This document shows positions 5,045 to 56,229 of a DNA stretch of 64,000 bases, one piece after another. The notes below the pieces were generated by a model. That model saw only the letters and a list, made by a program, of their open reading frames with translations, was not told where the DNA came from and did no database searches. How positions within the stretch are numbered: position 1 is the first letter of the stretch; the number at the start of each line of letters is the position of its first letter. The DNA lies in NCBI RefSeq assembly GCF_022045235.1, contig NW_027266275.1, positions 28,086,001 to 28,150,000 on the forward strand, written 5' to 3'. Source of the DNA: Haliotis cracherodii (lineage: Eukaryota). The position numbers were made by a program, and so were the translations under genes.

Positions 5045-6215
5045 ATGAGTGGTGTTCAGGTAGCCTGTATTCTGCTGGTGGCGTCTCATGTCGCCTGCCT
5101 GCCCCTCAACAACAGACCGATCATTGGTAAGAAACTACAACACCAAGTCACGTTCAGTTGATGATGGCCAATGTTCTTTTCTCAGACGATGTTGAACTTG
5201 ACGTCATGGATTTGTGTCGGCCGGTGCCTCGATTGAACAGAACATGTACCCACAATCAGATCTGCAATATGTCCTTGACCTTTATAACCGAGTGACCCCG
5301 TATGGATCACGGGTAAGAAAAGGTCCCCAGCAATATATGCTGGTCGCAAGAGGCGACCAAATGGATCGGGTTGTCAAGCACCGTGACTTGATTGATAGCT
5401 GTCATCGTGCCCGACGTAGTGGATCGTTGTTGATAATATCAACCACTGGGTTGTCTGATCTCGAATATGTACTGTCCGCCGTCAAGTAGCTCAAATATTG
5501 CTGAGTTCGGCGTTAAACAATATACAGACAAAAGCATATCCGAGTGGGTAGGATTAAAGCGGCGGATGCAAGATTCATGAGAAGTCATGCTTCAAAGGGC
5601 AAAATGTTGTTTGAATAAGGGTTAACCACAAAGCAAAGCTCAGGGATCAAACAATAAGCATTCCGCAAGGGTTAAACATAGAAATGACATGTGTTGATAT
5701 TATTATTGTTGTTGTTGTTGTTGGTGGTGGTATTTTTATTGTTAGTGTTATTGTTATACATGTTGATTCTGTATGCTGACCAGGTGTTGTTGACCAGTGC
5801 GCGGGTTTAGACCAGCCATATGGCGACACTTACATCAGCGCGACCTATGTCAAGTTCCTGGAACAGGCGGGAGCCAGGGTAGTTCCAGTGAGGTGGGTCA
5901 TTCAGTCGTTGAAACCGTAGGTGTGGATAAATCATGTATGTGAATCCTGGTTGCGTCCCTTGGCCGTGCACCCCTTCTGTGGTCAAGTGGTAGAGCGTCC
6001 GCCAGGGGAGCGGAAGGTCGGGGCATACCAAAAGACGTTAAAAGATGGTACTTGTTGTTACCCTGTCTGGCGCTCGTCATTAAGGGGCTAAACACGGGCT
6101 GATCGGCTCGGAGTCAGTATACTGTGTCTGAGTGGTGTATTCATGTTCAACTGTAGCATGGTATCTCAGTGAGCTAGCTCTATAAACCGGCATCAGTCCG
6201 CACTAGCACAAGCAG

Positions 6216-9200: not shown

Positions 9201-12117
9201 CAAAAACTGTTTGAAGTATGGTTTGCACACACAAAAGGATGGACCCAACGTCTCGATGCTACTTATATATATCGTTGCAGTTACGGGCTTGTTGAAAACA
9301 CCAACCTCTAGAAGCATGTTGATTCCGCTTCCTTACAGATGAAACTGGCGATAATTTTAATACATGTTCTTCTCTATGCCCCATTATTTGCGAATAGTGA
9401 GATGTGCTTTTTTATTTGTAGCCTACAAGGAAAGCCGCTTGCTGGGCATGGCCAGTCCTAGCGTCATCAACACGCTCACCAAGGAGAAGGTCACGCCAAA
9501 TTTCCATCATTTCGGGGTTATGGAGGAGGTATATTAATGTTACACACACGCGCACACATACCTTTTACAAACATATCGTGTAATACACACACACGCGTCC
9601 CGTCCCGGCTTACTATATATGCAGCAATATGCAATATGAAGAGCCAGAGTCAGATTAAAGGAGGACGTAAACAAAGATACATTGTGAGGTCATAATCATT
9701 GTGAGGTGATTAAACAAAACGCAACAATGCTGTTCGAATTACGTCAACAATGGCCTTGATTCGCATAACTGAAATGTAAGGATAATAAAATGATATTATA
9801 GAGAATCCCACCTGAGCGTCTTTTGATATCAAATACGAGTGTTGATATATTTGATATCAAAAGACACGAGGATGAGATACTATTTAACATCCAACATCAT
9901 TTTTCCAACATTTTCCTCAGTTTAAAAGCAGCAATAAGCAGGACCTTGGCTTTTGTAGCAGAGATTAGTGATGTCATTTGATTGTGACGTCATGGTAACC
10001 GATGATGTCACAATGGTCTGAAAAGGAGAGATCGCTTGATTTTTTTATCTCCCGTGGAGGCCACTTTTGGATGATTAATATTTAAATACGTTTCCTCTGT
10101 TACCCACACCGTCAGACATTTAGTGCCACGCCCTCTCTCCGCGACTTCTACCGGGTCATGTCTACCAACAAGGACAGGGGAGGGAAGGTGTTCGTGTCCA
10201 CCATGGAAGGTGTGTATCTCAATAAAAATATTTTAACTCGGACATTTTTATTGTCATAGTTAGTGACGTGCAGAAACACAAGTAACTATTGTTATTTTTG
10301 GGATAACACTTTCTTAGTAAAGTACAGATTCTAGTACTTTTTTGGGTTGAGTCCCGTGCGGGATTCGAACCCACACCTGTCAGGGTGAGGCACCTAATCG
10401 CCAGCACACAAAGTCAGCGATCTAACCCACTCAGCCACCGAGGCTTCCACAATAATGAAAGTCCGACAATTGGTAGTCTAGATCACGTACTTTGAGTACC
10501 CCCCTGACAAGTGTAAATTGGCATGGCTCTCATGGCCGAAAGCCCCCAAAAGCACTAGAATCTGTACTTTACTAAGAAAGTGTTATCCCAAATATAACAT
10601 TAGTTACATTTGACCACTTTCTAAATGGCATTGTGTATTCAGAAACACAAGCAGTTGTCGTCTTGTTATAATCTCATTACGTTCAATGCTGATTCCAATG
10701 TGTGCGTAGGACCATAGTCAAAGAGAACCCATCTCTATGTGAAGGGTTGTGTCCCTTGCAGTTTCCATTCCTACTCGTGCCATTCCGGGACAAACCTTCT
10801 TGTAGGTTACGGATGGTTACGAGTGGTGACAAATGTAGCTGATTAAAGGTCCGTCCCGGCACGTGACATCTTTACCCTCGTTGTATCATCGTTGCCACTA
10901 GTATGCAAGCCGCCCTTACAAGAATCTTGAAACTCCTAGTGTAATGGTATATATATCTTGGTGTATATCTTTGGGAATGACATTCTAGTGAATTGAGAAA
11001 AGGTTGACTAATATACTATTTCCCAGATGAATTTTCGTCTGTTTGTGTAATCAGATTTGTTCGCTATTGCAGACTAACAGAAAAGAACCTCTTACAATAT
11101 CATCACACTTAATTCGATTTCTACACGGTAGTTGAAATGAAACTGAAATTCCAACTGAAAAACAAACAAAATACTTTAACTGGGGGAAGAGTATTTGGTT
11201 TGGCCACATCTTGCTGGTAAACATAACGGTCAGGTAGTTGCTGGTTCAACTCCATATACGGTTGAGGGCGCCTAACACAGTAGGTATCGCTCACACCGGT
11301 CGCAGCGACAGTATTAAAGAGAGCTCTGTACTGCGAACGGCTATCTACTATGGCCTTGAGGTGCTGAATAGTTGGCTGGGGGTTCGAATTATACTCGAAT
11401 ATATTAAGTTGTGTTTGTTTGTGTGTTGTTAAACGCCGCACTTAGCAATAGTCCAGTCCAGTCTGAGCCAGAAAATCCAGTGATCGACATCATGATAATC
11501 GATCACAGAGAGCCTGACCACCTGATCCCGTTAGTGGCCTTTTACAATAAGCATAGTCGCCTTTTACGGCAAGCATGGGTTGCTGAAGACCTATTCTACC
11601 CCGGATCTTCACGGGTGCGATTATAATACGACCCAACAAACTGTCAACTATTACACGAAAAGAATTCCCGATGTTTTATCTCACGATATCCTATTCTGTC
11701 TCCCCCAGCGTTCAAATACCCGTTTTATGCCACCCAGTGGCACCCGGAAGATATAAACTACGGTTGGAATCCCAACGACGACGTCGACCACACACGGGAG
11801 GCCATCCTCGTCACCCAGTACCTCGCCAACTTCTTCGTCGACGAGGGTAAGCGAGTTGGGATGAGTCTGTGCAGCGCGGGTCGGAAGCGAACTGTGTGTT
11901 TGTTAGGAACCTCTTAATATCTATCGTATCTTGATATATTTTAGCAACTTAACATTTCATACTTCTTTCTTCCACAGCCCGAAAAAGTCAGCACCGCTTT
12001 CCAGACGTCGCCACAGAGTCTGCAGCCGTCATTGAGAACTACCAGCCTCTGTTTCTTAAAGACGGATCTTTCTCTGAAGCATATATGTTTAATTTTACCC
12101 AAATTCCTTTTAATTAA
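5045..12117 (+). CDS. GGH: gamma-glutamyl hydrolase paralog B, ~314 aa, 9 exons
   Basis: Exons 5045-5126, 5784-5892, 6840-6890, 7339-7423, 8736-8874, 9422-9528, 10116-10209, 11709-11846, 11978-12117 (945 nt, in frame, TAA). Signal peptide, [34 protein letters not shown] at 12153-12158. Confidence 0.94.
5971..6340 (+). mobile_element. tRNA-headed SINE with V-domain-like core and (CACCT)n tail
   Basis: A-box TGGTCAAGTGG, core cataccaaaagacgttaaaagatggtac, internal (CA)n, target-site duplication (TSD) cccttggccgtgc. Antisense copies at ~15545-15915 and ~49900-50242. Confidence 0.8.
10277..10645. mobile_element. repeat with an internal tRNA-like segment and inverted/tandem termini (copies ~27090-27435, ~34690-35022)
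   Basis: Three dispersed copies share a tRNA-like segment (GGTGGCTGAGTGG..GGTTCGAATCC) with partial direct and inverted terminal repeats. Confidence 0.75.
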
Positions 12118-20000: not shown

Positions 20001-22950
20001 AAGGGTAGGACACGTGTTATGAAGGGTAGGACACGTGTAATGAAGGGTAGGACACGTGTACTGAAGGGTGGAGCACGTTTATGGAGGAATGTGCACCTAT
20101 ACTGTATGTATTATCGACATTCTACTTCATGGCATAACATTATATCCACGTTTAGCTATGTCATGTTCAAATGCGCTAGATATGTACTTATGACCGTGGT
20201 TCTGGCTGATAAATATCAACATCCCTTGCCATGGCATGCCATGTTCATATGTTGTATATATTCTGTCCCCAGACGTACAACCAGACCAAGTCGCTCACCT
20301 CCTTCTACAGACTCATCTCCACAAACAGAGGCCGGAAGGGGAAGGTGTTTGTGTCCACCATAGAAGGTACAGAACACTCCTGTAACCTCCTGTAGCCATC
20401 TCGTGTTACACCCTGTAAGCCTGACATATACCACAATACCCCTATAACCTCCTGCAGCCATCTCGTGTTACACCCAGTAAGCCTGACATATACCACAATA
20501 CCCCTGTAACCTCCTGCAGCCATCTCGTGTTACACCCTGTAGTTTTGACAGATACCAGAATACCCATACATGCGTCATTGCGACCTCTGCTGTAGTACAT
20601 CTAAAGTAACGTAAGCCCATTAAGTTCCGATCTTTCTACTCTGATACCAGAGCTCCCTGTGTTAAGGTTTCACGGCATCTCCAAAGAAGGTCGGGTTAGG
20701 TGAACACTGAGCGATCTTTGATCGTTTAATCTATTCGAAGAATGAGTGGGTTCTAGAGCCAATTAGAAGTCAGCTTTCTATAAAGAGTGAAGCTTTATAT
20801 ATTATTCAGAAATTTCGATTTTAACAAAAGAAAATAACAGAAGACACAAATATGCCTCGATGGTACATCTCTTTGGGTGTAGATGCCACGGAGCTCAGGC
20901 ACGACAGGCTGTGTTCACTTTCCACAACAATATAATGTGGCGGCCTTTATTATATGTCGTTCTAGTTCGTTTTGAGAAATCAGATATGTTTGCATGGATG
21001 CTTCAATCTTCCCGAGGCAAGTGAGTTAACTGACTATAAAAGTCCAGTTTCCACCCTTGCCGAACTAGGCTGGTATTATGGAGTTACATTTTGGCTGGAC
21101 TAACGAGTCTATGCATAGTCCAATCAAAATCGCGCACCGAAATCGAAATCCGGTTCGTAGAGTGTCATGCAGATTTCGGTCGACTGCAGGATTTGCAAAG
21201 CATGTGCACCGCCAACTCGTTGTCCACAGATATTTACTAAATATTTTCATGTTTTTAATGAAGGTGCTCACGTGATTTGATGCACTTTCCGATGTAAGAC
21301 TCTTTTTATCACAATATAGATCTTGATTATCGATCAGATCGTCTTGACTGAGCGCCACCGTTTTGCTTGAAACAAATGCAAGTGATACGAGAGGTTGACT
21401 CTGATTGGTCATTAGGAGAGGCATAGAAAGGACATAACTCGTAATAGCCACTGGAGGCGCTACGATCGAGCCCAGGAATTCCAGCCTAGTTCGGCAAGGG
21501 TGGAAACTGGACTTTCAAAGTCAGTTAACTCTCTTGCCTCGAGAAGATGGGATGCTTCGCGCTCTCCTATCGAGAATTAGGAAGTATTGACGCTGAACGG
21601 CTGATCAGAAAGTTCACCTGACGAGGTGTCCTCAGATCTTCAGAGGTATCGTATCGGAGTAAAGGATCCGCTTTTGATTAGATAAGGAGTGACGATTAAA
21701 ACCTGTCTAGTGTCACCGTCTTCGCTTCAGCCTACAAGTACCCGTTCTATGGCACCCAGTGGCACCCTGAAAAGATCAACTTCGACTGGAACCCCAAGCA
21801 TGCGCTGGACCATACCAGCAATGGCGTCGCCATCTCACACTTCTTCTCCGCCTTCTTCATCGGCGAAGGTAAACGTTGTGTTCATATATAGTTAACCTGG
21901 TGACTGTTAATGAGTGGTGTATATTTTAATAAAAGTATTCGACCCATGAAAATCTGCGATAGAATAGGTCTTCAGCAAAACACTCTTGCTGTTAAAGGCG
22001 ACTATGCTCGTTGTAAGAGGCGACTAACGGGATCGGGTGGTCAGGCTCGCTGACTTGGTTGATGCATGTCATCGTTTCCCAATTGCGTGAATCTCATGAT
22101 ATCAATCACTGGACTCGAATATTTGCAGAATGCCGTCATATTGCTGGAGTGCGGCTTAAACAACAAACAAACAAACAAACAAATAACAGCTGTATTCCAG
22201 CTTTATCATGGCGGGAGACTCATTGTTATCATGAAGGGGTGCTAGATCTCCATGTGCAGGAGTTGGCATCATGTGCGCTGGGTGGAGGAGTGTTAGGCTT
22301 TACTATTTAGGTTAGACATGGGAGCTGGTTTGCACGAGAGATAGTTGCTTGACATCGGGGGCGTTAGAGGGGAGGAGTGTTAGGCTCTACTATTTTTATG
22401 ACAACGGTCTGTAAATAATCGAGGCTGGACCAGACATTCCAGTGAGGGATATCATGAGCATCGATGTACGAAATTGGGAAAGGTTGCCATGCATCGACCA
22501 AGTCAGCGAGCCTGACCACCTGATCCCATTAGTCGCCTCTTACGACAGGCATAGTCACCTCTTGCAGCATACATCGGCTGCTGAAGACCAATTCTAACCA
22601 GGATCTTCAAGGTGAATGTTTTGTGAGGGCATGGATATAACATACATATATTTTGAAGAGACAGATGTGTACGCCAGAGGGTATATGAGAATATGTCGGT
22701 GTTCTTTGAGAATAGGTATATCATTTGCAGAAATGGAATAGTTGAGAAGCTGAACAGGGCGGGGTGTTTTTTATTTCTACGGCCCAAGTGGATGAGGATG
22801 CTGTATGTTTCAGCTCGTCTAAGTGGTCACAAGTTCCCCAACGTTCAAGCCGCTGCAGACGCCGTCATCGAGAACTTCTACATGAACTACCAAGATGACG
22901 GCACATTCGAACAGATCTACTATTTCAACTACACCAAAACGTCCGCATAG
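13476..22950 (+). CDS. GGH: gamma-glutamyl hydrolase paralog C, ~314 aa, 9 exons
   Basis: Exons 13476-13563, 17709-17814, 18369-18419, 18541-18625, 18958-19096, 19478-19584, 20273-20366, 21731-21868, 22814-22950 (945 nt). Motifs RPVIG, PGG, WGTCQG, NFHHYG, QWHPEK. Close inverted relative of copy A. Confidence 0.94.
13764..15445 (+). mobile_element. nested insertions: headless SINE split by an ACCCG-rich DNA element, itself containing a Crypton-like palindrome element (~14040-15062)
   Basis: SINE 5' part at 13764-13793 and remainder from ~15241. ACCCG/CGGGT subterminal repeats at ~13810-13885 and ~15155-15222. A ~160-bp palindrome at 14040-14200 is centred on CGAGCCTTGGCGAG. Confidence 0.6.
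16030..16370 (-). mobile_element. old CORE-like SINE
   Basis: The - strand reads CAGGCAAGTGACTT...CCTCTGTTCACCCAGCAGTGAATGGGTACC. A related fragment lies at ~50330-50425. Confidence 0.5.
17815..18097 (+). repeat. 55-bp tandem repeat containing the exon-2 end and donor (GGH-C)
   Basis: 5 units starting at 17831, 17886, 17941, 17996 and 18051, each with ggccagggtagtgccagtcag|gtgag or a close variant. Confidence 0.92.
19900..20085. repeat. ~21-bp minisatellite (gaagggtaggacacgtgttat)
   Basis: About 8 tandem units in GGH-C intron 6. Confidence 0.9.
20375..20566. repeat. ~62-bp tandem repeat x3 directly after the GGH-C exon-7 donor
   Basis: Unit cctgtaacctcctgcagccatctcgtgttacaccctgtaagcctgacatataccacaatacc. 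Confidence 0.88.
21005..21549. mobile_element. non-autonomous DNA transposon with ~75-bp TIRs and a 9-bp TSD
   Basis: TIR atcttcccgaggcaagtgagttaactgact..gccgaactaggctgg and its reverse complement; ggatgcttc flanks both ends. A solo end of the family lies at ~40153-40182. Confidence 0.82.
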
Positions 22951-24253: not shown

Positions 24254-24700
24254 GACCCGTGAAGATCCGGGTTGAATAGGTCTTCCGCAACCCATGCTTG
24301 CCGTTGAAGACGACTGCCCCTGTCGTGAGTGAGTGAGTGAGTTTGGTTTTACGCCGCTTTTAGCAATATTCCAGCAATATCACGGCGGGGGACACCAGAA
24401 ATGGGCTTCACACATTGTACCCATGTCGGGATTCGAACCCGGGTCTTCGGCGTGACGAGCGAACGCTTGAACCACTAGGCTACCCGACCGCCCCCCTGTC
24501 GTGAGAGGCGACTAACGGGATTTGGTGGTCAGGCTCGCTGACTTGGTTGATGCGAATCATCGTATCCCAGTTGCGTGGATACATGCTCATGATGTCAGTC
24601 ACTGGATTTTCTGGTCCAGACTCGATTATTTACAGACCGCCGTTTTAAAGCTGGAATATTGCTGAGTACGGCGTTAAACAACAAATAAACAAACAAACAA
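24254..24700 (+). mobile_element. headless SINE (MetaSINE-like core, (AAAC)n tail) interrupted by an antisense tRNA-SINE (~24328-24495)
   Basis: Outer TSD caca(g/a)ttacagtcga and inner TSD ccctgtcgtgag. Other copies at ~5294, 11410-11617(-), 21940, 22400-22615(-), 39215, 39666, 39853, 46415-46640(-), 50772-51037(-) and 54921. Confidence 0.8.
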
Positions 24701-29715: not shown

Positions 29716-29956
29716 TTTGTTTGTTTGTTTGTTTGTTTTTTAACGCCTCACGGTGGTTTGTAAATAATCGAGTCTGGGCGAGACAATCAAGTGATTGATA
29801 TCATGAACCACGCAACTTGGATACGATGACATGCATCAACCAAGTCAGCAGCCTGACCACCCGATCCTGTTAGTCGCCCCACACGACAAGCAAAGTCGCC
29901 TTTTACGGCAAGCATGGGTTGCTGAAGACCTATTTTATCCCAGATCTTCACGGGTC
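29716..29956 (-). mobile_element. headless SINE in the 3' UTR region of the CARD-like gene
   Basis: TSD cgttttgacaatga; 5' end GACCCGTGAAGATC; (AAAC)n tail. Confidence 0.85.
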
Positions 29957-37800: not shown

Positions 37801-40800
37801 AGCTGTAGCGTTAAAATCGCATTGTAGAACGGGGCCCAACACGTCAATGTTCAAGGACAAGGCAACGCAAGGAAAAGCACCATTGTTACATATGGCGTGT
37901 ATGTGAGACCCCTCCACACTGTTACCTGTCGCAGGGATTTACCTGGGTATAGCCATATTTGTTCCAGGGGACTCTCTGTAATCGGGAATCCAGAAGGGTC
38001 CCATGCTGGCAACCTGTGGAACGCTTAACTTGATTTCCAAGAATATTAATTGATTTCACTAGCTTGTTTTAGATGGTAATTTCAATGTCAGATTGTAGAA
38101 AAGCAACCACTGACACCCAAAACTTTGAGTGTAGTTTTTATAACAGAATAGAAGTGTCAGTTATATGAAATCGTCATTAAGAGGCCTCAATTCGATGTGC
38201 AGAGTTGCGTCTCTTGGGTACGCCAGAAACTATGCTTGTGGGTTCGAATCTCGGTGCTCCCCGAAAATGCTTCTTGATTTTTCAGCACCATAGCCATGGT
38301 ATAGCGTCTGAGACCTGCATCACTTCGAGCTTTCCTCCCACATTAAGCTGACACGCCGTAATATAATTGGAATATTGTTCAAACCGGCCTCATTCACTCA
38401 CTCCCTTCATACAGTCTACAAGTTTGATAACTGTAATATTTTTTTGGCATCCTTCAGGACAATTATTTGCCTCCGTTATAATTTGTACACGTACAGGACG
38501 CAATATTCGGCCTGAGGAGACCATCACTACAGGGATTCATGGTCATTCAAGGTTTCCCGTTGTTCGATTTTGATTTATCCATTCATATGTTCACCGCTAT
38601 TTTGCCCCTCACGTCCAATGCCATCTTTTTCGGTGGATAATCGAGACTGGTTATTCTCTGGTGTTGACGTTTTGTATTTATTGCTTTGCATGCCAGAGCT
38701 CCGTGCCACAAAGCGATCTTAGTGCTATGATTGTCATAGATCAAAAGTCGGTAATGTAAAGGGGAGTAACGGCTAAGAGTGAGTGAGTGAGTGAGTGAGT
38801 ATGGTTTTACGCCGCTTTTAGCAATATTCCAGCAATATCACGGCGGGGGACACCAGAAATGGGCTTCACACAATGTACCCATGTCGGGAATCGAACCCGG
38901 GTCTTCGGCGTGACGATCGAACGCTTTAACCACTAGGCTACCCGACCGCCCCTGTAACGGCTAAGATCTTCCATAAGGAGAGTTTAAGGGCTGTCGTAGA
39001 TTTAGGGTGATCTTATGACTCAGTGTTAGTGACGGCTTTGTGTAACGGCCTTAAAAGGTAAGACATGGTTTACGACGTGGTTCGGATGGTCGTAGCGCTA
39101 AGAGGCTTTCGTGAAACGGCACCCTGGTCCAGATTTGTATTTTTTTATTGGATGTGATATAACTGGAACATTGCTCTCCGATGTCTTTTAACTACACTCA
39201 CTCCCCGAAATGACGCGACTATGTTTGTCGTTAGAGGAGACTAACGGGATCGGGAGGTCAGACTCGCTGACTTGGTTGATGCATGTCATCCTATCCCAGT
39301 TGCGTGGATCCGATGCTCATGGTATCAATCACTGGATTGTCTGATCCAGACTCGATTAGTTACAGACCGCCGTCATATAACTGGAAAATTGCTGAGTGCG
39401 GCGTTAAACATCAAACGAACAAACCCCCAAATGACTGCTTGTGTAGGCCAACTCTGAGGGCGAGGTGTTCCCCCTGTGGGGTTCGTGTGAGGGGTTCCAG
39501 CTAATGACGTACTTAAGTACAGGACACAGACTGCTGCACTCATCAGAGGCCTACAACGTCAGTCTGCCTCTCATCCTGCAAACAGGTAGGCAGCCACTGT
39601 CACTGGAGGAATACAAAACTGCATGTCAATATAGTAGAGGAGAAACTTGTCCTTGACATACATTTGGCCCGTGTAGGGATTTCGGATAAGAAAAAGTCCC
39701 TAGTACCCAATGCACGTAAGAGGCGATTGATGAGAATCGGGTGGTTAAAATGTGTGATCTAACAGACCGTCTGCCATGATCTCATGGCATGGATCGTTGG
39801 TCGGGATATCAACCACTGGTGTACTTTGACGGGACGAGATGATTACATACCCATCCGTGAAGATCCCGGTTAGAATAGGGGTCTTCAGGAACCCATGCTT
39901 GTCGTAAGTGGCGACTAAATTAATGGGATCGGGTGGTCAGGCTCGCTGACTCGGTTGATGCATGTCATATTATCCCAATTGTGTGGATTGATGCTCATGA
40001 TATCAGTCACTGGATTGTCTGATCCAGACTCGATTACTGTAAATCTTGAACTTAACCCGAGCGTGAATTAAATGCGAAAAGGAGAGTGCATGGTGCACAA
40101 GTTAGATCTATTTATTGTCTTTGGTGGTAATTTATCCGCCCATGACTTGTATAGTCAGTTAACTCTTTTGCCTCAGGAAGATGCGTACAGTTGGTTCCGA
40201 GTTCCATCACACTGTCACTCGAGGCACTTGTACTTGGGAACTTGATGACTAACCAAACGTTTGGATAAACGATGTGTGTATTTTTTTGTTGTTGCAGGTT
40301 ACGAAACAAGCAGAATGCTCGGAGGACTGACATCCCAGCTGACCACAATTCTGACCAGCGAGAATGTTACGCCTAACTTCCATCACTACGGCGTGTCGGT
40401 TGAGGTACACCGGTCATCATTTTATATGTAAATTCGCCGAATTAATACATTAGGAGATTGAGAAGAGTCATCATGTTCAGGGTGTCAGGTATCCAGTTAT
40501 CCGCGACATTTCGGCTTATTCCGCCGCATACAGAATACATCGGGTTGCACTCATGACCAACTCGTCCCATTCCGGGACAAGCTTATCGTAGGTTACGGAA
40601 ACATGCGAGTGGTGACGAATGCATCGGGTTGCAATGTCGTTGTGACATTGCATGAATTTACTGGAAACGATGAAACCACGGTCCCGCCGCATGTAGTTCG
40701 TATAACACGACGGACGTTTTTGGAGACAGATTATGCCGAGGTTAAAACTAAACATGTCTTCTCTTTGATATGAAGACAAAAGCAAAACTTTTTGAACATT

Positions 40801-45435: not shown

Positions 45436-46645
45436 ACAACCGCTTATCTGTGTCTTAATCTCCTGTGCGTGGTCACGTTGTATTGGCCTTGAGGTGATGT
45501 TTCACCTTGTACATAACTATCTGACTCCGGCAACTGTACCAAGACAAGGAAGTAGGTTGAATACCTCATGATGTCCAATTATTATCTAGCATATTTTCCG
45601 TGTTGACAAGTTAATAAATAATAAATATAAAGAGTACGTGATTTTTGCCTCATGCCGCATCATCAACCCAGATGAGAATTAGGATGATGATCCTACGGTT
45701 GGCTGCACATCCATCAGTAGTTCCTCATAGCCCAAGAGGGGCGGTCGGGTAGCCTAGTGGTTAAAGCGTTGGCTCGTCACGCCGAAGACCCGGGTGGGTA
45801 CAATGTGTGACATGGGTACAATGTGTGAAGCCCATTTCTGGTGTCCCCCGCCGTGATATCGCTGGAATATTGCTAAATGCGGCGTAAAACCATACTCACT
45901 CACTCACTCCTAGTCCAACAGGAAAAAAAATGTCTGATTTTAACTACCGCATTATGTAATAAAACATTTTCCTCACATCTTTCAACTTGGGAGGACAAAG
46001 AGGTGTTCATTTTGTAGTTTTTCTTTTCTGCCCACACTTTAATCCACCACCTCCCTCTGACAGGGTAAACCATGCTGTCTGGTCGTCTGCAGATAACCGC
46101 AGCTCCATACATAGCCCAGAGACCCACATCTTCATATCCCATGCATAATACATTTCGGTTGAAGAGTCAAGGGAGTCTGGAACACAGATACTACACAAGG
46201 ATACTATTTACCACGGCCAGTTAGCCTTCGTTCGTGTGGAGGGGCGGTCTGGTTGAAGCGTTCGCTCGACACGCCTAAGACCCAGGTTTCGAATATCCAC
46301 GTGGGAAGATGTGTGGTATCCCTCGCCGTGATATTGCTGGCCTTTTGCTAGAAGCGGCGTAAAACTAAACTCATTCATCCACTCCTTTGAGTGGTCATTT
46401 CACAATCGTTTGTTCTTTCGTTTCTTTGTTGTTTAACGCTGCTTTTACAGCAATTTTACAGCTATACGACGGCGATATTTAAATAATCGAGTCTGGACCA
46501 GTAAATGTATTGATTGACATCATGAGCATCCCTCTACGAATTTTGGATACGATGACGTTCAGCAATCATGTCAATGAGTCTGACCATCCGATCCCGTTAG
46601 TGGCCACTCACAAGCATGGATCACTGAAGACCAATTCTAGACCAG

Positions 46646-46753
46646 GGCCCACTTGCACAAAGCGATCTTAGCGCTAAGGTAATCGTAACTCCCATACTTT
46701 AGCATAGGCTTACGATAGACTTAGCGCTAAGATCGCTTTGTGCAAGTGGGCCC
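46646..46753. mobile_element. ~110-bp fold-back MITE (copies ~12209, 37735, 47251)
   Basis: GGGCCCACTTGCACAAAGCGATCTTAGCGCTAAG ... CTTAGCGCTAAGATCGCTTTGTGCAAGTGGGCCC, a perfect inverted repeat. Confidence 0.85.
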
Positions 46754-54900: not shown

Positions 54901-56229
54901 ATTACGTCACAATGAGTATCGACCCGTGGAGAAAAAAGAGACTATGCTTGTGGTAAAAGGCGACTACCGGGATCGAGTGTTCAGGCTCGCTGACTTGGTT
55001 GATGCATGTCATCGTATCCCAATTGCGTAGATCGATGCTGATCACTAGATAGTCTGGTCCAGACTCGATTATTTACAGACCACCGTCATATACTGCCGAG
55101 TGCGACGTTAAACAACAAACAAAACAAAATACAATGAGAATATTGCAGTGTATATTTGGGTATTACGTCACAATGAGTATATTGTAATGTATATTTGTGA
55201 CAATGGACATCTAGCCAGGTATTACGTCACAATGAGTATCTTGCGATGTATATTTGTGACGATAGGCATCTAGCCATTTATTACGTCACAATGACTATAT
55301 TGTGATATATATTTGTGACAATGGGCATCTAGCCAGATATTACGTCATAATGAGTATATTGCGTATATTTGTGACAATGGGCATCTAGCCAGGTACCTTG
55401 CAGTATGTGCATGCAGCATTAAGTATCTCTGTAAATTACACCATGTGCATTGTGAGGTAATAGTACATACACATCAATCTCAAGCCAACAGTAACAACCT
55501 TTGTGTCGAAGGTGTTGTTTCTTGTAATTAGTCGGATAATGCTTCCTATTCCTTCAGTTACATTGGATGTCGTGTAAACTGACGACTCATTAGAACCTGA
55601 CATCAGTGATCCTATACTTATATGGTCTCTGCGTACACACGACACAAGGCCAACCATTAGCCTTTGGCGTGGTTGGAGGTAACCATAAAGAAAGCTGAAA
55701 AATGCCTACAAACTCATTATCTCATTACCCCCACTCTGTATCCGCCCATGGGTGTGCCCCGAGTCGGGTTACCCCAACTGCGATCGCACACTCGTACACT
55801 GCGTTTACTTTGTACAGTGTACAGAGTGACATGATTAAAGAAATATGTATGTCACATGCTATTCACTAACACTGGCGTTATTCGTATTTATATATCCTTG
55901 TAACGAGGCCATCCCTACAAGCTGGCAGTACACGTGTCCACGGTCCACTTAACACAAAATCATTATGTATATATACGCGACTGCGTTTGTATACTACAGA
56001 TCCGTTCTACCGTGTTGTTAATCATTGACCGAACAGTACAGCGGTCACAAAGACCCTAACAATAAATCAAGAGCCATACAGGTCCTGGCTATACACTTCA
56101 ACGCGAGTCCACTTCCTACATGACCTTAACTGTCAACAGAGCTTTTCCCGACTCGATCACACTTACCGACACGCCACTACTCTGCTTTTCCAGGTAACCC
56201 TCCATTACAGGTGTGTCCAGGGACGCCAT
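48970..56229 (-). CDS. PH-domain docking/adaptor protein with tyrosine-motif-rich tail, ~369 aa, 5 coding exons
   Basis: Exons 56229-56167, 54753-54682, 51926-51807, 50664-50576 and 49735-48970 (phases 0,0,0,2). The spliced N-terminus reads PVMEGYLEKQSS..KSRFWCTLQGECLQYYK..QFEIITKKQRTLLFTAATAIECSNWVRHLQQAM, a complete PH fold with the conserved C-terminal Trp. The tail carries YEEI, YADV, YAEV, YSTL, YATV and YTRL. Confidence 0.86.
52281..52561 (-). mobile_element. tRNA-derived SINE, same family as the 41644 copy
   Basis: TSD tccgatttagg; near-identical to 41644-41928. Confidence 0.88.
52705..54655 (-). mobile_element. ~1.95-kb DNA transposon with ~34-bp TIRs and a decayed Tc1/mariner-IS630-type transposase
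   Basis: TIR aaagtactgtcggaaatgctagaaaactgctttt at both ends. Frameshifted fragments at ~53700-54040 read IRGIVYKLYEQK / LQEMGFRY / RSHYLRTIHNYHSQGVQIIYLGES, where YLDE has become YLGE. Confidence 0.72.
55140..55395. repeat. ~58-bp tandem repeat
   Basis: Repeated tattacgtcacaatgagtat..tatatttgtgacaatgggcatctagcca; related units at ~54790-54920. Confidence 0.8.

Follow-up and report, generated by a model that had tools for sequence, protein, structure and literature searches.

About a dozen copies of one repeat, 250-270 bases long and ending in a CAAA-type tail, lie within the window, the whole 64-kb stretch of Haliotis cracherodii DNA that was analysed (Table 1). The seven copies listed in a first-pass annotation of this DNA do exist, and they start at or within 1-2 bases of the start given there, with the head of the 54921 copy mostly deleted. 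Three subfamilies of this SINE can be distinguished. Subfamily A is common, B is older and C is older still. The terminal hairpin of the head, P4, is duplicated (22 nt) in 66 of 87 subfamily-A copies, a point that the first-pass annotation had missed. The 39666 copy belongs to the third subfamily and is old and decayed. It has a 3-nt deletion in the terminal hairpin, and no other DNA of this genome matches it better than at 82% over 59 bases. A 464-kb unselected sample, consisting of 40 stretches at round coordinates plus the window (genome 1.18 Gb, 80 contigs), yielded 176 profile matches, 56 of which start within the first 10 model positions; when scaled from this sample, the number of SINE heads is about 10^5 per genome.

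The window also holds a second kind of SINE. It is inserted within the 24254 copy, is tRNA-headed and has the same Nimb-type tail, and it occurs again at 10349-10444 (- strand). ARAGORN reports one tRNA-Thr-like stretch, at 10349-10444 (-). Elsewhere in the genome, contig C6 carries a tandem array at 11.04-11.06 Mb (L005, L006, L015-L023) made of units of ~1.9 kb with one SINE copy each.

Table 1. SINE copies in the window and elements of the head of the 39666 copy
Feature	Position	Strand	Basis
SINE copy, subfamily B, head 5296-5360	5294..5530	+	
SINE copy, subfamily A, duplicated P4	11416..11617	-	
SINE copy, subfamily A	21941..22173	+	
SINE copy, subfamily A	22394..22612	-	
SINE copy, subfamily A, interrupted by an antisense SINE insertion at ~24330-24490	24254..24691	+	
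SINE copy, subfamily A, head abutted by a 14-bp target-site duplication	29726..29956	-	
SINE copy, subfamily C, old, decayed, without tail	39666..39822	+	sequence; profile model positions 4-160
S1 5' strand, leader CCG, predicted partner 39683-39685	39669..39671	+	cross-lineage test; 39666 copy scored 0 in fixed register
P2/S2 5' arm	39674..39681	+	sequence, covariation
12-nt loop: CGG (S1 3' strand), then conserved AGAAUA with one change here	39683..39694	+	
P2/S2 3' arm	39695..39702	+	sequence, covariation
P3 hairpin region, damaged in the 39666 copy	39702..39714	+	
P4 hairpin, conserved 7-nt loop; outer pairs lost through the 3-nt deletion	39715..39726	+	
SINE copy, subfamily A, single P4, head 39853-39918; next after the 39666 copy	39852..40029	+	
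Decayed SINE copy	46420..46658	-	
SINE copy, subfamily A, duplicated P4	50778..51037	-	
SINE copy, head mostly deleted	54921..55123	+	

The position of the SINE 5' end was determined from target-site duplications. There were 125 anchored heads, 78 of them with a tail and 26 of these with a duplication of at least 9 bases, tandem near-duplicates on contig C6 having been removed before the count. The duplications abut the first G exactly in 14 of the 26 and within ±1 in 19, as the first-pass annotation had proposed. In a control displaced upstream by 45 bases the figure was 4 of 77, scattered in position. Neither a shared upstream sequence nor a tRNA head was seen among 68 SINE heads inspected, which bears out the earlier statement that a tRNA head is absent. 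The base at which the SINE starts is the first base of S1, a stem of the head that is 6 bp long in the subfamily-A copy tested, which has a single terminal hairpin. SINE subfamilies are typically founded by few master loci, and a fixed start could be historical, that is, due to a few masters with an upstream host promoter or ribozyme, with the motif having its job elsewhere, in LINEs and viruses. However, three subfamilies of different age, the scallop elements discussed below and the families of Haliotis, Littorina, Ostrea and Saccostrea would each need a master with the same edge, and this explanation is decidedly improbable.

The head comprises 65 nt and is predicted to form a 5'-terminal H-type pseudoknot plus two hairpins. 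The predicted order is S1 (3-6 bp, leader with loop), a single U as linker, S2 of 7 bp, a loop rich in A, and then P3 and P4. A stem S1, one U, a stem S2, no linker, the S1 partner, an A-rich loop of 8 bases and the S2 partner are the classic order of an H-type pseudoknot. The arms of S2, the main stem, had been correctly placed in the first-pass annotation, and the four compensatory pairs that it described relative to the common stem are present. Two of the four are subfamily-level differences, A-U in A versus G-C in the older B (subfamily-A copies without the extra T against 26 B copies). Covariation of the main stem holds up across 13 lineage representatives, which are not all mutually independent: S2 is paired in 85 of 91 cases versus 58.0 when shuffled, and none of 20,000 shuffles is as high. 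For P3, a hairpin of 3-4 bp between the main stem and the terminal hairpin, the figures are 33 of 36 versus 23.0 and 1 of 20,000 (the same representatives less one deletion copy). With the seven viral representatives alone, 1 of 5040 permutations was as high for S2 and 24 of 5040 for P3. All seven S2 pairs and all three P3 pairs have changes on both sides, a score that 0 of 500 shuffles reach in a pair-count test, and RNAalifold recovers S2, P3 and P4 unprompted.

Two elements of this fold had been overlooked at first, P3 and the S1 pseudoknot, in which the leader strand pairs with the opening bases of the first loop. S1 is paired in 53 of 65 cases versus 45.2 when shuffled (46 of 50,000 shuffles as high; 72 of 5040 permutations for the viral representatives alone), with registers placed by hand; slid registers give 16-32 versus 45 of 52. 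Double changes occur in S1 of viruses L170 and L182 and, judged by eye, in the scallop heads. In two viruses the stem is down to 3 bp, and it is disrupted in the second L197 copy and, in the fixed register, in the 39666 copy. Folding of single sequences chooses S1 in four of six motif sequences and S2 in two of six, as is expected of two stems that cross. P4 is invariant and could give no covariation signal because it served as the search pattern; its 7-base loop presumably resembles a T-loop. The fold contains invariant loop bases. Two pairings suggested by the first-pass annotation did not survive comparison with shuffled sequences. Its pseudoknot between the loop and a downstream strand had 43 pairs versus 41.5 (6409 of 20,000 shuffles as high) and its closing stem 54 versus 54.5 (3188 of 5000 as high). 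Rfam matched nothing in the window at its gathering scores; over the motif, seven outside loci searched at E values up to 5 gave no match, nor did the LINE head.

The head is shared with LINEs of the Nimb clade, and the head pattern has 749 exact matches in the Nimb LINEs of this genome. In a pattern scan of prokaryote assemblies, two animal-like contigs (L179 and L187) were found to carry the motif upstream of ORF1 and of an ORF2 with an endonuclease. The L187 endonuclease, when used as query, retrieved 40 stretches with long ORF2 frames from this genome (L255-L294). The motif lies ~1.8 kb before ORF2 in 37 of them, and in all 37 the same 57 bases stand directly upstream of it (e.g. L257:2592-2648). 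This 57-base LINE start resembles Rfam RF02682 with an E value of 0.0024 and 29 bits, which is below the gathering score of 44. At the sequence level, Nimb bases 1-57 have the P1-P4 pairing of an HDV-like ribozyme with a conserved L3, and the element starts at G+1. Target-site duplications of the LINEs abut the first ribozyme base in 23 of 35 cases and lie within ±1 in 29, a precision that the SINE start comes near. Judged from sequence and duplications together, a predicted HDV-like ribozyme sets the start of Nimb LINEs. The nearly invariant 5' end made of HDV-like ribozyme and motif is common to many diverged Nimb families (L255-L294).

The SINE thus appears to be a Nimb head minus the ribozyme, joined to a middle without a traced source and to a Nimb-type tail. 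Its tail is 86% identical over 37 bases to that of one of the 40 Nimb stretches (L280), and the other tails are alike by eye only. The exact partner LINE was not found among the LINEs collected, and the extreme LINE 5' end is missing from the SINE. When the same genome was searched with patterns in which the head continues differently, there were 0 matches in one case and 2 in another, one due to chance and one a decayed remnant. LINEs bearing RNase H (20 stretches of two families, L134-L153) were considered as the parent and rejected; their start is different and they have neither the head nor the tail. Both of these families are young, start with CAGTT and have an antisense fragment of the SINE tail fixed in the 5' UTR. 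A short, internally deleted Nimb derivative, L322, starts at the motif edge without a ribozyme and is a possible model of how the SINE originated. Nimb heads are densely clustered on contig C2 at 20.8-21.75 Mb, where more than 60 of the first 100 matches listed lie, many of them nested; the region resembles a piRNA cluster or a favoured site of insertion. For the LINE in a Solemya contig, a target-site duplication was looked for and not found.

The LINE starts bear on several of the functions that the first-pass annotation had offered for a structured RNA at the 5' end. What stands of that proposal is that the structure coincides with the SINE start and that its main stem covaries beyond this genome. 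The self-cleaving site, the promoter and the stop to reverse transcription fare poorly, and a nuclease block is the best-fitting option of the four. A novel ribozyme cleaving itself immediately 5' of the first stem would agree with a start at the 5' edge of a fold that is compact and has invariant loops, and in several LINE clades the 5' end is made by a ribozyme (PMC5786205). However, the upstream ribozyme is kept in 70 of 72 LINE heads examined (mismatched rows judged by eye), and LINE copies starting at the motif edge make up ~1% of ~714. Starts at this edge amount to three events versus 1, 1 and 0 in three control windows, and among heads chosen regardless of edge there were two starts at the motif edge versus one inside the ribozyme; the edge is not clearly enriched, and the counts lean the way expected of an exonuclease block. 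Self-cleavage is very improbable since ~99% of the LINE copies retain the 57 bases upstream. No ribozyme in Rfam matches the motif, and a cut at this place would presumably sever the 3' end of the linear viral genomes that carry it. Fits of the motif to the consensus features of twister, hatchet, pistol, hairpin and hammerhead cores were also attempted by eye and rejected. According to the accessible part of PMC10085705, no natural non-circular forms of twister have been reported. A structure that halts reverse transcription, or that guides the joining of the second strand at its edge, would also be compact and sit at the junction, but the LINEs are copied through both motif and ribozyme, and the ends made by such a stop would be expected 3' of the fold and not 5'. 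This role is the most improbable.

The motif is not limited to retroposons. It was found in eight IMG/VR contigs, seven of them distinct. L174, L182 and L197/L252 have a tombus-type polymerase, L192 is toti-like, L170 (near-identical to L173) has a tetravirus-type capsid, L181 has an S-domain capsid and lacks a recognisable polymerase, and L191 is a 212-kb DNA virus contig. An RNA-dependent RNA polymerase is present in four of the six small contigs. In all six, the motif lies on the sense strand after the last ORF, 6, 11, 24, 74, 101 and 123 bases past the stop codon. Tandem pairs occur in L181 and L252, and the extra L252 copy was recovered at 37 bits by a model untrained on that copy. Flavivirus xrRNAs (exoribonuclease-resistant RNAs) likewise lie in 3' UTRs and are repeated in tandem. 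In the DNA virus, a complete motif (L191:2982-3045) lies between two genes in an A+T-rich spacer, ~120 bases before an ORF of 959 codons. Each virus has stem sequences of its own, and this speaks against assembly chimeras.

Viral scans yielded 5 true copies among 9 loci, 5 of 5 that were already known, and 3 new ones among 14 loci; further scans gave none new among 47 loci and none among 36. A metagenome scan returned one locus only, a copy of the same SINE, and a protein-based search for relatives of one virus recovered that virus alone. Scans of prokaryote genomes turned up none but animal-like contigs (3 true of 4, 1 new of 7, none new of 11). Contigs L178, L179, L180/L184, L187/L253 and L254, which are filed as bacterial genomes, contain LINE or repeat sequence of animal type, likely as host contamination.

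The viral copies also bear on a possible promoter role of the motif. In this reading the head is an internal promoter for RNA polymerase II, with transcription beginning at the first base of the head itself, and is perhaps also a folded RNA like Pr77 of L1Tc. A promoter was proposed for the LP-SINE head (PMC4758252) and would give a fixed SINE start. Nimb copies, however, start 57 bases upstream at the ribozyme, and the exact abutment seen in most of their duplications speaks against it. Internal promoters are often carried by LINE 5' ends. Yet the motif is also carried by viruses that have an RNA polymerase and no DNA stage, and its stems stay paired while their sequence changes, and a promoter is quite improbable. 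A promoter or a self-cleaver at the motif predicts that LINEs should start at the motif too, and they do not.

In the main rival reading, the motif serves uncapped RNAs as an enhancer of cap-independent translation or as a protein- or ribosome-binding element, through which the SINE would reach Nimb proteins on ribosomes while its start is fixed in some other way. The motif stands directly behind the ribozyme in the coding LINE RNA and in the 3' UTRs of tombus-like and toti-like contigs, and 3' translation enhancers are known from plant relatives of such viruses (PMC12397905). The invariant loop bases suggest a binding surface, and the copy in the DNA virus L191 precedes an ORF. The positions in LINEs and viruses are equally compatible with a translation or protein-binding role and with an exonuclease block. 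However, the former does not account for a start at the first base of S1 in subfamilies A, B and C and in the scallop elements. This rival is unlikely, and the two roles may coexist.

The reading that we favour is that the motif most likely works like an xrRNA, outside classes 1-3. An exonuclease block is favoured because it fits the SINE start at S1, the LINE start 57 bases upstream and the copies in viral 3' UTRs; the start at the first S1 base, the place in viral 3' UTRs and the tandem copies are counted for an xrRNA-like role. The SINE head would have been taken from the 5' untranslated region of a Nimb LINE. Host read-through transcripts would carry the SINE, and Xrn1 or Xrn2 would degrade them from the 5' side until arrested by the fold, which may be ring-like at its 5' end, leaving an RNA of unit length. 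The Nimb reverse transcriptase would then probably copy this RNA through the shared 3' tail. In viral RNA the motif would give rise to a subgenomic RNA from the 3' part, in the manner of known xrRNAs. A ribozyme cut leaves a 5'-hydroxyl end, and Xrn1 does not attack such ends. LINE copies would therefore retain their ribozyme, with the motif as an additional safeguard. The chances that a new kind of exoribonuclease-resistant RNA trims read-through transcripts to the fixed SINE start are, in our estimate, evenly balanced. The fuller proposal is put forward more tentatively, as somewhat short of an even prospect: an xrRNA of a new structural class, made of a 5'-terminal H-type pseudoknot with two docking hairpins, would have moved among animal retroposons and unrelated RNA and DNA viruses; the SINE, needing neither promoter nor ribozyme, would have its RNA cut from read-through transcripts by host decay; and ~10^5 copies would seed nuclease blocks in introns and UTRs.

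A search of sequencing runs listed no carrier among RNA data sets. In three runs of small RNA from a related organism, 32 reads fell on the SINE and 157 on the LINE head. Sense reads did not pile up at a common start on either, though such reads carry little weight for an RNA of 260 nt. One run (X20) contained 127 antisense reads of ~31 bases with a single start over the LINE-head pseudoknot (L257:2655-2685). They are piRNA-like and are possibly copies of one molecule.

If the favoured role is true, exonuclease arrest would be a third way of setting retroposon 5' ends, beside internal promoters and ribozymes. It would also explain the puzzle posed by LP-SINEs, in which a 70-base piece has been swapped between Nimb and RTE LINEs and replaces the tRNA head. 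Whatever its function, a covarying pseudoknot found in mollusc LINEs and SINEs and in unrelated viruses, with no Rfam family, is a new RNA motif. A stabiliser behind a ribozyme-cut 5' end could be useful for uncapped RNA templates and for gene insertion based on retrotransposons. No prior description of the fold, of the ribozyme before the motif in Nimb or of the viral copies was found in the open literature searched. The words of the terminal hairpin were absent from the main text of the open literature searched. Titles and abstract beginnings among the xrRNA and retrotransposon matches listed mention no natural retroposon xrRNA, and the xrRNAs described in PMC12397905 are viral. Among the papers listed for ribozymes in Nimb non-LTR elements, none, judged by its listing, treats the subject apart from PMC4758252, and Nimb is not among the six ribozyme-bearing LINE clades in the accessible part of PMC5786205.

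The SINE family itself and its shared head have been in print since 2016, when headless, LINE-headed SINEs were described from Haliotis, and the family fits the LP-SINEs of PMC4758252. Hdi_LP and Hmi_LP are described there as 255 bases long with a head of ~70 bp common to Nimb-17_LMi, I-3_DR and RTE-9_CPB; this head recurs at the 5' ends of two Nimb LINEs and one RTE LINE, and LP-SINE families occur in Haliotis, Littorina, Ostrea and Saccostrea. The family described here likewise has a LINE-derived 5' head of ~70 bp without a tRNA head, a length of ~255 bases, target-site duplications and a tandem-repeat tail. The family is presumably identical with Hdi_LP. The heads of scallop elements marked 'Nimb-17 homology' (PMC4758252 fig. 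S2) match the motif by eye and start at its edge; these elements have a tRNA-derived region downstream of the head, yet they too start at the head. The accessible part of the PMC4758252 text gives no head structure, partner LINE, Nimb ribozyme or viral copies. It proposes a promoter role instead and mentions the parallel with the Pr77 ribozyme, which it leaves undecided.

The likeness to MetaSINEs suggested in the first-pass annotation goes little further than that both are SINEs of molluscs and that scallop MESC elements carry the head before their tRNA-derived region. All MetaSINEs have a tRNA head according to PMC4824008, and the Meta/MESC domain, which follows it, is another sequence; by eye, in the PMC4758252 supplement, it lies downstream of the head in the scallop elements. 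The present SINE has neither a tRNA-derived head before a domain nor the Meta/MESC central domain, and three head words had no match in the MetaSINE supplement.

Class 3 xrRNAs (PMC12397905) and the class 1 and 2 xrRNAs of flaviviruses also resemble the motif. All are compact pseudoknots near the start of viral 3' UTRs that may occur in tandem, and in class 3 an apical loop with a pseudoknot strand is followed by a conserved purine-rich segment (PMC12397905). The motif shares with xrRNAs a pseudoknot that involves the 5' end, as indicated by S1 covariation, and the sense-strand place in the 3' UTR of every small viral contig. Class 3 xrRNAs halt Xrn1 at the base of the first stem (PMC12397905). 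The loop of the motif, however, pairs with the 5' leader and not with a 3' strand as in class 3, a pairing that did no better than the shuffled sequences above. Nor does the motif have the three-way junction with double pseudoknot; the closing stem expected of class 1 or 2 is unsupported and Rfam gives no match. It has two extra hairpins, occurs also in host retroposons, and its fold matches none of the three classes. The HDV-like ribozymes at the 5' ends of R2, RTE and Ingi/L1Tc (Pr77) elements (PMC5786205, PMC3383444) are the other close comparison. The SINE head has no nested double pseudoknot P1-P4, conserved L3 or J4/2 of this kind. Nimb LINEs start in the same way as those elements, whereas the SINE starts without a ribozyme, at a motif that is a separate fold directly downstream of the ribozyme in its LINE relatives.
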